DNA of 33,164 nt from Prevotella sp. GTDB lineage: Bacteria > Bacteroidota > Bacteroidia > Bacteroidales > Bacteroidaceae. Each line of letters opens with the position of its first letter. Within the stretch, counting starts at the first letter, position 1. The notes beneath the pieces are model-generated. The model made no database searches. It saw only the letters and a program-made list of their open reading frames with translations, and was not told where the DNA came from. The translations under genes and the position numbers were made by a program. Positions 4,800 through 24,926 of this stretch are shown here, piece after piece. The stretch covers positions 1-33,164 of the forward strand of contig JAJPZE010000055.1 in NCBI GenBank assembly GCA_021204565.1, given 5' to 3'.

Positions 4800-5447
4800 T
4801 TAATCGGTTAATGATTGTGCCCTCGACTGCAACGCCTGTGCCGTGTCCGCCGCGCCGCGCTCCAATGCCGTCAACGCCGCTATCTCGCACACGCACGCCC
4901 GGTATAAACGGGTCGGGATGTCGATAACCTCGTCCCCGTCCTCACCGGTTACGATGTACGGCAACGGGATATACGCCGCTTCGGCTACGGTTGCGTCTTC
5001 GCTGTCCGACGAGTAAAACTCCAACGCCTTGCCCTGCGCCCGCTGTATGATAAACACCTCAGGACGCTCCGCCGTGCCGCGCAACGCCTTAACAGGGCTT
5101 GACTGCAAGGCGTAACGCGGGTCGCTGTCGAAAGCCGCCGGTGATACGCCGCGCGCCCAGTCGCTCATACGGAACGTTATCAGACGATAGAAGTCGGCGG
5201 GGAGTATAACCGCGCCCGCACCCTGATTGCCCCAAAGAACGCCGCCGGTGAAACTCTTCCCCTCGCCCAACGCTATCACGGGCGCAACGGAGAGTATCGT
5301 CCTTACGCCGTCGGTGATGTTGCGGTGTATTGCCTCGTCGAGCATGCGCGTGTTGATGTCAACGGCTAAAAGGTCGTTGTTGACGCGGTTGCGGTCGAGA
5401 GCGATGCGCACGTCGGGGATAAGCTTGTCGCTAACGGCTGCAATCAT
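4800..5447 (-). CDS. Phage structural protein, putative head-tail adaptor
   Basis: 215 aa; helical N- and C-termini around a beta-rich core (ILPADFYRLITF), as in podovirus adaptors; second gene after the capsid gene; TAATG-coupled to the upstream gene. Confidence 0.55.
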   Translation of the reverse strand: MIAAVSDKLIPDVRIALDRNRVNNDLLAVDINTRMLDEAIHRNITDGVRTILSVAPVIALGEGKSFTGGVLWGNQGAGAVILPADFYRLITFRMSDWARGVSPAAFDSDPRYALQSSPVKALRGTAERPEVFIIQRAQGKALEFYSSDSEDATVAEAAYIPLPYIVTGEDGDEVIDIPTRLYRACVCEIAALTALERGAADTAQALQSRAQSLTD

Positions 5448-5971
5448 TACTCTTTCACAACGAATTTAATGCCGTTAGCCTTTGCCTCCGCTAATACCGC
5501 CGCCACGCTTAACAGTTTCTTCGACGGCACGCCGCACTCCTTTACAAGGTATTGCTTGCCGTCGCTCTCGATGTCCGACACCTCTACCGCTATCAGCCCG
5601 TCGGCATCCGTTGCCGTCTCTGCGGGGCTCTCTTCCGCCGTCGTTGCTTCGGCTATGGGGGTAACGGGCGTTTCCGTTACGGTATCCGCTTTGGTTGCCG
5701 TCTTGACGGTCTTGGCGGTTGCAAGTTTCTGCGCGGTCTTATACGTCTTTAAGAGTTTTATCTTCCCCGACTTAAACTCTTCCGAGCTTTCGATTAAGTC
5801 TTGTATGGCAAGGTTCGACGTGCGGTACTGTGCGGGAGTAATGCCGCCAGTGTTTATCGCCCCGTCGGTAAACGACAACCGAAGCGTGATGTTCTGCTTG
5901 CAATGCAACGCCGTGTGCCACTCCGTCATGCCCGGCACACCGTATATCTTTAATGTTGCGTTCGTTTCCAT
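5447..5971 (-). CDS. Hypothetical phage protein following the capsid gene (two small domains joined by an Ala/Thr/Glu linker)
   Basis: 174-aa ORF, ATG with AT-rich leader, coupled to the next gene. Confidence 0.8.
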   Translation of the reverse strand: METNATLKIYGVPGMTEWHTALHCKQNITLRLSFTDGAINTGGITPAQYRTSNLAIQDLIESSEEFKSGKIKLLKTYKTAQKLATAKTVKTATKADTVTETPVTPIAEATTAEESPAETATDADGLIAVEVSDIESDGKQYLVKECGVPSKKLLSVAAVLAEAKANGIKFVVKE

Positions 5972-6031: not shown

Positions 6032-7591
6032 TTATCCCTGAACCGCTACGCCGGTGTAGAGCTTCCACGTCTCGTCGGAGTAAACTAACATATCGCCCGT
6101 GTTAACGGTCGTGCCGTCGGAAAACGTACACGGATTGAGGAAGTAATAAACGGTGTTCTCGTCCGGGCTGTCCGGCTCGGATGTAACGAACTCGAAGAGT
6201 GCCGCGCCGGTTGACCCTGCCGTGCCAATGGTCGCCGTGTCGTCGTCGCCGCCGTCAACCCAGATATGACAATTGCCTTTAAGTACTAAGGCATCCCAAT
6301 TGATGATACCGCTGCGGCTCGCCTCCGCACCCTCTATACGCTCGTTGAACGAATGCTCCGACGAACGGACATAACGAACAAGACGGTTCTCGCCGATGAT
6401 GGCAAACGAGTTGGAATATCCCAAACGGTCGAGCGTCGGCTCACGCTTGAACTCGAAATCGCCGAACACGGTGTGTATCTTCGTTATGCTCCATCCGAGC
6501 GCGTTGGTGTTCTGCGACACCATCACCTCTTGGTGCTTGCTCCAATCTATCTTCTGTATGGACTCGAGCGCGTTCTTGCCGCAAAGACAGATACCCGTCT
6601 TAGGCACATCCTCGCCCGTGTAATAAATCTTCGCCAAAGCAATGAAACGGTCGTAGTCCCAAGCTTCCGTCTGTTTCACTGCGCGTTTGAACTGCCAGAG
6701 AATACCTTCTGAGAACCATATATACTCCATACCGCCCGTTTTCGGCGCACGCACTTGGAACTTGCCCTTGCGTCCCGCCCAGAGGGAGCGGTTGGTGCGC
6801 ACCTTGTAGTTCGCTATCGCCTGCTCGGCAATAAGTGCCTGCGTGAACGCGGGGTTGTGCTTCTTCTGGTCGGCGAAATAATCGGAAACAACGCTGTTCA
6901 TTATCCTCTTTTGGAGATAAACAACTTCCGACTTCGGCGTAATCAAATCCGGCGCAACATTCTTCTGCGTCTCGTGGCACGCATTACTCATAATAATGCA
7001 CTCCGTCCCCGCAGGTATTTCAGGCATCGTGCAATACTCGTCGGTGGCGTTCGTCTTCGGACCATTCACCGCCCGCACTATCGGATAACCCGTCGTGGCG
7101 TCAAACCCGGTAACGAACAACATCAGATACTTGCCCTGCGTCTCCGTTTGTCCCGTGATGTCGTAGCCGTTCACACCCTTAACCAATAACGTGCCGAACT
7201 CCTGCGGTATACGCGCGTCGGTTGCGCTCAACGGCAACGTCGCTTGTGCCGCGCCGGAAGAAACATCCGCCGTAGTGGTTACTTTCGCTTTCGGCTCGTC
7301 AATCATACTATGCTCCACCTCCGGCGAATTTACCTTAATAGTCTTCGCCACTAATGCCAACTGCATAAGCGGAGTGTCGTCGCTCTGGAACTTAAATAAC
7401 TGTTCGTCTACATCCGGTTCAATGAGGTTGCCCGGTTTGATATCGCCCGTTGCGCTCGCCGCCGCACTGACGGTTGTCGCCTGTCCCGGCACTTGCGTCT
7501 CCAAGCCCGCCGTACCCGTACCCGGCTCGATGTCCCCCTGTTGGAGTTGCACTCTCTCGCCGTCAATCTTGGTTACATTCTCTACTGCCAT
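6032..7591 (-). CDS. Major capsid protein (HK97 fold inferred) with an appended C-terminal module
   Basis: 519 aa; follows a scaffold-like gene and precedes a strong terminator; TPLMQL and YLQK segments resemble Bacteroidales phage capsid proteins. Confidence 0.8.
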   Translation of the reverse strand: MAVENVTKIDGERVQLQQGDIEPGTGTAGLETQVPGQATTVSAAASATGDIKPGNLIEPDVDEQLFKFQSDDTPLMQLALVAKTIKVNSPEVEHSMIDEPKAKVTTTADVSSGAAQATLPLSATDARIPQEFGTLLVKGVNGYDITGQTETQGKYLMLFVTGFDATTGYPIVRAVNGPKTNATDEYCTMPEIPAGTECIIMSNACHETQKNVAPDLITPKSEVVYLQKRIMNSVVSDYFADQKKHNPAFTQALIAEQAIANYKVRTNRSLWAGRKGKFQVRAPKTGGMEYIWFSEGILWQFKRAVKQTEAWDYDRFIALAKIYYTGEDVPKTGICLCGKNALESIQKIDWSKHQEVMVSQNTNALGWSITKIHTVFGDFEFKREPTLDRLGYSNSFAIIGENRLVRYVRSSEHSFNERIEGAEASRSGIINWDALVLKGNCHIWVDGGDDDTATIGTAGSTGAALFEFVTSEPDSPDENTVYYFLNPCTFSDGTTVNTGDMLVYSDETWKLYTGVAVQG

Positions 7592-7649: not shown

Positions 7650-7799
7650 TTATCCTTTGTCCCGTTCCGCCTGTGGCGGGTCTGCGCGGAACAACACGCT
7701 TGCCGTCATACATTCTCCGGGCAATTGCGTCGGCAACCCCGCACTGCCCTGCGACGCTTTAATGCGTCCCGTACCGAACACTATCGTCTCGCCGTCCAT
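7650..7799 (-). CDS. 49-aa microprotein paralogous to the capsid N-terminal arm (below the ORF-track cutoff)
   Basis: MDGETIVFGTGRIKASQGSAGLPTQLPGECMTASVLFRADPPQAERDKG; ATG overlaps the scaffold stop (TAATG); 16/38 ungapped identities to capsid residues 10-47. Confidence 0.75.
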   Translation of the reverse strand: MDGETIVFGTGRIKASQGSAGLPTQLPGECMTASVLFRADPPQAERDKG

Positions 7800-8545: not shown

Positions 8546-8580
8546 ATAAAAGATGTACTTTACTGCCTTAATGTTTGCCG

Positions 8581-8623
8581 CAAATTTAATACGTGCCGCT
8601 ATGCATAATGTGTTATCCGTTAA
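8581..8623 (-). promoter_or_regulatory. Putative late promoter for the scaffold-capsid-fibre operon
   Basis: Minus strand TTAACGGATAAC (8623-8612), 23 nt, TAAATTTG (8588-8581). Confidence 0.8.
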
Positions 8624-8651
8624 TAAAGTGCGCCCTTATATGCTTATTATG

Positions 8652-8694
8652 TTAACGGATAACCCTTTTTGCCGCACAAGACGCATTATTTTTG
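8652..8694 (+). promoter_or_regulatory. Putative late promoter for the 8718..9014 gene
   Basis: TTAACGGATAAC (8652-8663), 23 nt, TATTTTTG (8687-8694). Confidence 0.8.
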
Positions 8695-8717
8695 CGGCGA
8701 AAAGAAAAGAAACGCTT

Positions 8718-9014
8718 ATGATAAACAAGAAGAGTCCGACCAAACGGTTCATATCCGAATACATACAACGCGAATTGCAGGGGCAGGTGGTGGGGTACTT
8801 CGCCACGCAATTCAAAGACGACTTTAAAGCCCTTGACCCGAAAGAACGCATCGATACGATGATACGTCTCGCACCTTACGTATATGCACGTTTGGAAGCG
8901 ACGAAGATGAGTGCCGACCGGGCGGACACCCCCACAACGGCAGAGAAGAAAAACTACCTGCGCGAGCAATCACTCCTCTACGAGAACAAGACGCAAGACG
9001 GCATCGCTTCCTAA
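8718..9014 (+). CDS. Small helical phage protein, putative terminase small subunit (start moved from 8553 to ATG 8718)
   Basis: 98 aa with DFKALDPKERIDTMIRLAPYVYARL, a pattern I recall from small Bacteroidetes phage proteins near terminases; ATG follows the promoter and an A-rich leader; function is inferred. Confidence 0.55.
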   Translation: MINKKSPTKRFISEYIQRELQGQVVGYFATQFKDDFKALDPKERIDTMIRLAPYVYARLEATKMSADRADTPTTAEKKNYLREQSLLYENKTQDGIAS

Positions 9015-24179: not shown

Positions 24180-24926
24180 TTAAACGTTGTTATTAATTCT
24201 GTTTTTCCCCGCATTTGAGAGGTCGTAATCTCTATATCGCAGAGCGGGGTTCGACGTGTAGTCTTCCACCGTTGCCGCGTTTGTTGCTCCCGTTGTTGCA
24301 CTTGTTGCCGGGGGGGTTACTCCCGTTGCTCTTGTTCCCGTCCCCGCGTTACTGCTGCCGCTTGCCATTGCCGCCGCTTGGAACAGACTGCCGGCGGCGT
24401 TGCCTACGCCCTGCACCGCGCTCGCAATGTTCTGCGCCCGCTGGTATTCAACGCCCGCTTTCTGTCCTAAAAGTTCCCGTTTGTTCGTCTGATAGTTCTC
24501 CTCTATCTTGTCTTTTTGCGCTTCGGCATTTGCCGCTATCTGTGAGGTTGCGTCTGCAAGCGCCGCTGCGTTCTGCGCTTTGGTTGCCGCCGTGCTTTCT
24601 TCCGTGCCGCCCTGCACCGCCTGTTGTCCCGCCATTGCACGGTTGCGGTTCTTAATATAATCTTCCGTCTGTGTGAGGATGCGTTGCGCGTCGGCACGTT
24701 GCGTCGCGTCCTCGTTCATCCGTCGGTTATACCAGCTCTCATTCTCCGATAGCTCCTTGTTGATGTACTTGTTAGCCTTCTTCGACGCCTTGCTCGAGGC
24801 TATGCCCCCCGCAATGCTGCTCCCAATGCTTGCCGCAGCACCTATCGCGCCTATGATCAACGGCAATATACACTCCTGCACGCCGAAGTCGCCGCGCAAA
24901 ACCGTAGATAAAAATAAATCCGTCAT
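24180..24926 (-). CDS. Putative internal virion (pilot/ejection) protein 1
   Basis: Hydrophobic Gly/Ala segment LIIGAIGAAASIGSSIAGG, coiled coil, second Gly/Ala segment; same layout as T7 gp14 and P22 gp7-type proteins. Confidence 0.7.
   Translation of the reverse strand: MTDLFLSTVLRGDFGVQECILPLIIGAIGAAASIGSSIAGGIASSKASKKANKYINKELSENESWYNRRMNEDATQRADAQRILTQTEDYIKNRNRAMAGQQAVQGGTEESTAATKAQNAAALADATSQIAANAEAQKDKIEENYQTNKRELLGQKAGVEYQRAQNIASAVQGVGNAAGSLFQAAAMASGSSNAGTGTRATGVTPPATSATTGATNAATVEDYTSNPALRYRDYDLSNAGKNRINNNV

Follow-up and report, generated by a model that had tools for sequence, protein, structure and literature searches.

The window, by which we mean the whole analysed stretch of 33,164 nucleotides, carries a phage head operon in which an open reading frame (ORF) of 49 codons lies between a predicted scaffold gene and the major capsid gene (Table 1). 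The first-pass annotation had described this ORF as a hidden microprotein copying the N-terminal arm (N-arm) of the capsid protein. The ORF was present as described, and its ATG overlaps the scaffold gene's TAA by one base (TAATG). Its stop codon is separated from the capsid gene by 58 nt. The word hidden did not hold, since the exact 49-aa sequence has already been gene-called in the NCBI protein collection and in NCBI nr, and WP_217317384.1, "hypothetical protein [Leyella stercorea]", is a member of the same family. No family of Pfam or PHROGs matched the window microprotein or any of its 35 relatives, and the ESM Atlas gave no usable match. Against a profile of 35 relatives from which it was left out, the window microprotein scored 33.3 bits, and a profile of 35 peptides, run against 177,635 PDB sequences, gave no match up to an E value of 10.

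Table 1. Positions of the genes and smaller features of the window treated in the text.
Feature	Position	Strand	Basis or remark
Candidate decoration protein, 174 aa, after the capsid gene	5447-5971	minus	phrog_23743
Major capsid protein, 519 aa, HK97 fold	6032..7591	minus	Pfam SU10_MCP, 26.9 bits (cut-off 24.1)
Capsid residues 10-61, the N-arm stretch copied by the microprotein family	7409..7564	minus	joint alignment
Microprotein, 49 aa, capsid N-arm paralogue	7650..7799	minus	residues 1-34 family-typical, last 15 atypical
Six off-frame codons like the conserved ATGG-x-G segment of the family	7660..7677	minus	shares its bases with the in-frame tail
Predicted scaffolding protein, 248 aa	7799..8545	minus	phrog_22323 (unknown function); position before the capsid gene; charged, helical-looking sequence
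ORF of 153 aa between the scaffold gene and the giant gene	8553-9014	plus	no Pfam or PHROG match
Giant protein, 4634 aa	9098-23002	minus	methyltransferase-like and SF2-helicase-like motifs
Protein of 381 aa	23012-24157		presumably internal-protein module
Protein of 248 aa	24180-24926	minus	presumably internal-protein module
Protein of 698 aa	25783-27879	minus	presumably terminase-large-subunit-like motifs

The AlphaFold model of the capsid protein had a pLDDT of 84, and its best structural matches were the capsids of Vibrio phage VP1, crAss001 and SU10, with VP1 at the top (9IN6; E 6.5e-18, Z 16.4, rmsd 15.0, 348 aligned). Most HK97-fold matches covered residues 58-451 of the model, starting near 58-67, and VP1 aligned from residue 32, leaving residues 10-31 outside its alignment. 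Capsid residues 1-60 thus form the N-arm, which is longer than that of VP1. The capsid profile found no match among the PDB sequences.

Among the neighbouring genes, the one before the microprotein probably encodes the scaffold, judging from its position and composition. The 174-aa candidate decoration protein has homologues in nearly all of the 93 capsid lineages compared below, whether the peptide is present or not. We take the 4634-aa protein to be DarB-like, and its gene, together with the 381-aa and second 248-aa genes, looks to us like a module of ejected internal proteins; the 698-aa product is presumably related to terminase large subunits. A Pfam match to an SU10-like adaptor suggests a short-tailed phage. 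No portal gene was recognised within the window; in the cultured phage BF1-TP2 the portal gene lies near the head genes.

Similarity of the microprotein to the capsid N-arm

The ungapped alignment of the microprotein with capsid residues 10-47 contained 16 identical residues among 38, as had been claimed. Its score of 76 was reached by none of 10,000 shuffles (mean 27), and BLASTP gave an E value of 3e-6. When all 887 stop-to-stop frames of the window were compared with the capsid arm, the microprotein was the top non-capsid match (79; next 43), and it ranked its own arm first among 93. Residues 187-219 of the product of 24180-24926 also showed a weak ungapped likeness to the arm (score 43, reached by 19 of 2000 shuffles), but the family profile does not match this product and the likeness falls in a Thr/Gly/Ala-rich stretch, so it is probably a matter of composition.

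At the DNA level, the window peptide and the arm share 63 of 114 bases (21, 23 and 19 of 38 at the three codon positions), and the same codon is used at 9 of the 16 identical residues. It had been proposed that the DNA had diverged while the peptide was kept by selection. This could not be read from the window pair alone; the selection itself was confirmed, but only through the relatives described below. The two segments with the 63 shared bases, 7686-7796 and 7451-7564, begin with 10 identical bases. Local gene conversion between the peptide and arm DNA is possible.

With all members considered, the family copies the whole N-arm (about residues 10-61), ending in the joint alignment at about capsid D60-V61, directly before the first core helix of the capsid (61-67 in the AlphaFold model). 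An end at this place would be expected if the extended arm, and not just a short motif, were mimicked. Near-invariant positions common to peptide and arm were G26, G29, Q33, G36, T40, V41 and A47, and conservation in the two was correlated (Spearman 0.62 over 52 columns).

The peptides also carry features of their own. A hydrophobic-x-Phe pattern near the start was found in 31 of 37 peptides and in none of the 37 arms, and cysteine in 25 peptides and again in no arm. The net charge was higher in the peptide than in the arm in 35 of 37 pairs, with means of +2.0 and -2.6. The peptide alone was predicted to be unstructured (pLDDT 51) except for a helix at 32-39, which corresponds to helix 41-48 in the predicted capsid model. 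When the L109 peptide was modelled together with a pair of capsid chains lacking their arms (residues 56-441), the predicted complex had an uninformative score of 0.00.

Distribution, selection and origin of the family

For comparison, 226 loci were fetched in addition to the window, in sets of 39 and 27 and as the best 80 from each of two lists of 212 and 235. Of these, 29 were excluded because the scaffold or capsid start was unrecognised or the contig was cut. Locus L201 was removed as well, for a miscalled capsid start, and the final set of 197 loci fell into 93 clusters when the capsids were grouped at 95% identity. Similarity of the intergenic frames to their own arm was bimodal (scores 62-139 versus 13-45), and by this score the peptide was present between the scaffold and capsid genes in 37 of the 93 clusters (118 loci). 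Three more clusters, represented by L087, L166 and L118, have ORFs that are divergent but intact and were recognised with the profile of the family (hhalign 90.8%, E 1.2e-6; reversed control 0.1%). A conserved ORF between the two genes, which the first-pass annotation had named as a check of its proposal, was thus found in 40 of 93 lineages and 128 of 197 loci, and it was absent from the other 53 lineages. The true share of carriers may be lower, since the ORF was found in none of 12 excluded loci that were inspected.

The relatives come from genomes labelled in their records as Bacteroidales, mainly Muribaculaceae, Prevotellaceae and Porphyromonadaceae. L148, L185, L216 and L218 lie in bins labelled Acutalibacteraceae, Lachnospiraceae and Anaerolineaceae, which is likely misbinning. 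L042 differs from L041 by homopolymer frameshifts in the scaffold and capsid genes, likely assembly errors. The search gave no close relative of the phage in the window, the best capsid identity being 61%; 4 of 60 related host genomes gave matches, at only 21-27%, and neither these four loci nor BF1-TP2 (26.5%) had an arm-like ORF before the capsid gene.

Carriers were scattered over several separate places on the capsid tree, requiring at least 6 state changes, or 9 losses under one origin (midpoint root). In L035, a deleted and frame-broken remnant of the gene was observed. Arms with fewer than 61 residues ahead of T73 occurred in 30 of 56 non-carriers, most of which belong to one clade, and in no carrier. 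In a Muribaculaceae-rich clade (e.g. L160, L168 and L190), the capsids have lost much of the N-arm, some of them lack GxAG, and the peptide is never present.

Searching protein collections with the family profile gave 205 protein clusters at 90% identity, 28-116 aa long and nearly all unnamed and some of them possibly fragments of capsids. A search of 1.84 billion representatives gave 166 matches, and 111 of the best 150 were 75 aa or shorter; removal of 12 likely capsid fragments from these 111 left 99 family representatives, and the median length of the family peptide is 54 aa. The longer matches from this larger collection turned out to be capsids or pieces of them, or else repeat proteins, and nothing scaffold-like was among them. 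A 602-aa "member" of one peptide cluster was an unrelated synthetase-like protein and was discarded as a clustering artefact. L202 (79 aa) and P0159 (78 aa) are family members with in-frame internal insertions or duplications.

Selection was examined in three clades of 8, 21 and 6 sequences, with the window copy and L202 left out. The first-pass annotation had suggested dN/dS as a check; the ratio pN/pS was 0.32, 0.39 and 0.42 in the three clades, in the same range as that of the capsid arm (0.31-0.35). Synonymous sites of the peptide were saturated (pS 0.72-0.77, against pN of 0.25-0.31), and pN was below pS in all 253 peptide pairs, which are not independent of one another. Dispensability in 53 of the 93 lineages could suggest that a duplication merely left these sequences behind as a non-coding relic, but the saturated synonymous sites, the third-position mismatch of 0.62-0.64 versus 0.22-0.31 in the peptide ORFs, and the open frames with their own starts kept across capsids down to 40% identity make this extremely improbable, short of some overlapping constraint that imitates a codon periodicity. 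By these sequence measures the microprotein is a real protein-coding gene family under purifying selection. The proposal of a free-standing paralogue of the capsid N-arm under selection was in this way borne out by significant similarity in the region before the HK97 core, by the shared conserved positions and by the family-wide pN/pS.

In the joint tree of peptides and arms, all 36 peptides fell on one side of a branch and the 36 arms on the other (support 98/94). This tree has only 54 columns, some long branches were flagged, and the longer sequence was used for some clade A capsids. The separation makes one old duplication of the capsid N-arm, followed by several losses, the simplest history. 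Scored against all arms, the peptide placed its own arm at a median rank of 11 of 37, with somewhat better scores against the arms of its own clade, and in clade A both peptide and arm have GG (8 of 8). Concerted evolution or co-evolution was not taken as proven from these observations, which may reflect one or few events, and the tree keeps the peptides together.

Capsid-sensing host defences exist, and a patchy distribution with repeated loss, as observed here, is typical of accessory counter-defence genes. The peptide could then act as a decoy or competitor for such a defence. We consider this improbable, because its slow, capsid-like conservation tracks the arm's structural positions and equals that of the arm in strength, which would fit a structural binding site better, and because the gene has a fixed place in the head operon.

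The C-terminal tail of the window's copy

The window copy sits on a long branch of the joint tree (0.89) and deviates from the family at the conserved positions T39, V41, G49 and G50. Its first 34 residues are intact, and the difference concerns the tail. The family norm, seen in 23 lineages, is a conserved Ser, four residues, and then ATGG. In the window, a segment like ATGG-x-G is found in another frame, 20 nt past the conserved Ser instead of 12. In a test chosen post hoc, none of 1500 shuffles equalled this off-frame match over 6 columns, and 13 of 1500 did so over 8. A shifted reading of the window copy bridged by X scored 50.6 bits, compared with 42.4 for the in-frame reading. Since the in-frame and shifted tails share the same bases, one of the two readings must be a coincidence.

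The in-frame tail has support from the family as well. It ends in a family-like manner (E-R-D-x-G-stop) with the spacing of the short-tail member P0324, the nearest database peptides P0377 and P0381 have the TAS variant as in the window and lack the GG segment, and the distal GG segment is missing, by eye, in at least 12 of the 99 family representatives. We lean slightly to a frameshifted, weakened allele, and an intact short-tail variant has a little under an even chance.

It is a further question whether the family is functional and the window copy a decaying, non-functional allele, so that this phage would resemble the lineages that have no such gene. The displaced ATGG-x-G segment and the higher score of the shifted reading are consistent with decay, as are the distance from stop to capsid gene, the longest among the 36 listed, and the remnant in L035, which shows that deleted copies exist. 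Yet the start, the core motif, the Phe and the Cys are all retained, the in-frame tail has the family-like features above, and an assembly error is a possible source of the shift. We consider non-functional decay a real possibility but would bet against it.

Probable coupling to the scaffold gene and putative role in the head

In the window, the peptide frame contains no stop over the 151 nt that precede the scaffold stop, and it had been suggested that a -1 frameshift near this stop could fuse the peptide to the scaffold. A scaffold lengthened at its C-terminus in this way, whether through programmed -1 frameshifting or through readthrough, would suit the 24 of 37 lineages in which the peptide lies in frame -1. 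The frame is, however, +1 in 7 lineages and 0 in 6, in 4 the peptide frame is interrupted by a stop that comes after the scaffold stop and ahead of the peptide start, slippery heptamers occur in only 2 of the 37 and in none of the -1 cases, and every lineage has its own ATG. The fusion was thus not upheld, and we regard it as highly improbable. The -1 cases are mostly TAATG or ATGA overlaps, which suggest translational coupling, and in most lineages the peptide would be translated by re-initiation after the scaffold gene.

The peptide keeps the glycines and small residues of the arm over 50 positions, is predicted to be unfolded by itself and would be produced along with the head proteins, so it most likely binds at the site of the arm. 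We propose, with a probability of roughly 45%, that this duplicate of the arm binds the arm grooves of the shell as an optional minor head protein and fills arm sites left empty, most simply those round the portal. Filling of vacant N-arm sites and tuning of assembly had both been suggested by the first-pass annotation, and both are plausible. The peptide would be unfolded alone and would fold on the shell, docking in the grooves that the capsid N-arm itself uses. New contacts through the added Phe, Cys and Lys/Arg, whether to the portal, to another copy of the peptide or to DNA, might make up for the lost covalent link with the capsid body. A pentamer is replaced at the portal vertex (PMC9509320), which would leave naturally vacant arm sites beside the portal. 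That the gene is missing from 53 of 93 lineages indicates that the head can be built without the peptide.

Two points bear on the location at the portal. Coupling to the scaffold gene would yield many more copies than the five sites of the portal vertex, which counts against it. It also presumes a capsid arm that crosses between capsomers and so may leave empty sites at the portal; the arm stays within its capsomer in phi29 (PMC11922011) and is without long-range contacts in Patience (PMC11965321).

The many copies expected from coupling could instead suit a role in the procapsid. Capsid arms are described as binding scaffold in phi29 (PMC11922011) and 80alpha (PMC5644958), and the peptide might bind scaffold as immature arms do, tuning nucleation or timing, or be a small basic internal peptide that faces the DNA. 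The overlap of its start with the scaffold stop in most lineages would agree with such a role, and so would a charge more basic than that of the arm in 35 of 37. We hold it to be a serious rival, not far below the shell-groove reading in likelihood. Against it, the copy stops short of the core-proximal helix 61-67, which by analogy with helix 1 of 80alpha would be the likelier scaffold contact, and its net charge is only about +2, with no cargo domain and no lysine tail. We favour binding in the shell groove over binding to scaffold, given that what is copied is the extended arm and that this helix is left out.

The closest precedent is LP2 of phage Milano, and the peptide may work as LP2 does, perhaps also as gp57 of crAss001 does. 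LP2 (gp128) of this Agrobacterium phage is a 38-residue copy of the N-terminal strand of LP1 and occupies equivalent capsid sites via disulfides, according to the available text (PMC10491603). Like the present family it is tiny, was first missed in annotation, and is a free-standing short copy of the N-terminal strand of a capsid protein, with Cys. The parents differ, being the decoration-protein anchor LP1 in Milano and the arm of the major capsid protein here, and LP2 was seen in the virion. No sequence relationship of LP1 or LP2 to the family was found with the family profile among the 177,635 PDB sequences (E up to 10).

In crAss001, whose capsid shares with that of the window the common HK97 fold with an E-loop insertion, the disulfide-linked gp57 replaces gp36 at the portal vertex (PMC10172136). 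It resembles what is proposed for the peptide, being a small protein of a gut Bacteroides phage that takes the place of a component occluded at the portal vertex, with disulfides. It differs in substituting an auxiliary protein, gp36; the part of that report available does not present it as related to a capsid arm by duplication, and there was no sequence match. The accessory capsid protein gp4 of Patience and Adjutor (54-102 aa), random coil alone and helical in the shell, is also small and, like the family, predicted to be disordered alone; it binds the hexamer chasm, and the accessible text does not describe it as a paralogue of the capsid arm (PMC11965321).

Two other kinds of small head protein were compared. 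CpmB of SaPI1 carries a short copy of an assembly interface, the C-terminal helix-and-hook of the 80alpha scaffold, and competes at the same site, as far as the available text goes (PMC5644958). The gene for CpmB lies in a satellite and its product reproduces the end of the scaffold, whereas the microprotein belongs to the phage's own head operon and copies the start of the capsid protein; a size redirector of the CpmB type was ruled out by this location and parent. The internal proteins of T4 are non-essential small head proteins loaded during assembly, with a short targeting leader and a cargo body. Their capsid-targeting sequence is described in PMC9958956. An internal protein of this type was also rejected, since the similarity to the arm spans the whole peptide, with a median of 54 aa and no cargo domain.

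A literature search, covering mainly freely available papers, gave no description of a free-standing N-arm paralogue of a major capsid protein or of this microprotein family. There was also no such peptide in the available parts of PMC12694917, PMC13730344, PMC9509320, PMC13450770 and bioRxiv 10.64898/2026.04.10.717836.

Arm contacts at the symmetry-broken portal vertex and the timing of the exchange between arm and scaffold are structural questions for HK97-type shells. A natural mimic of the arm of about 50 residues, present in some phages and absent from their close relatives, offers a natural comparison for head assembly. Such a mimic would also give a name to a small family of hypothetical genes (205 clusters at 90% identity) in common gut prophages, and would explain unassigned peptide densities if such phages were imaged.
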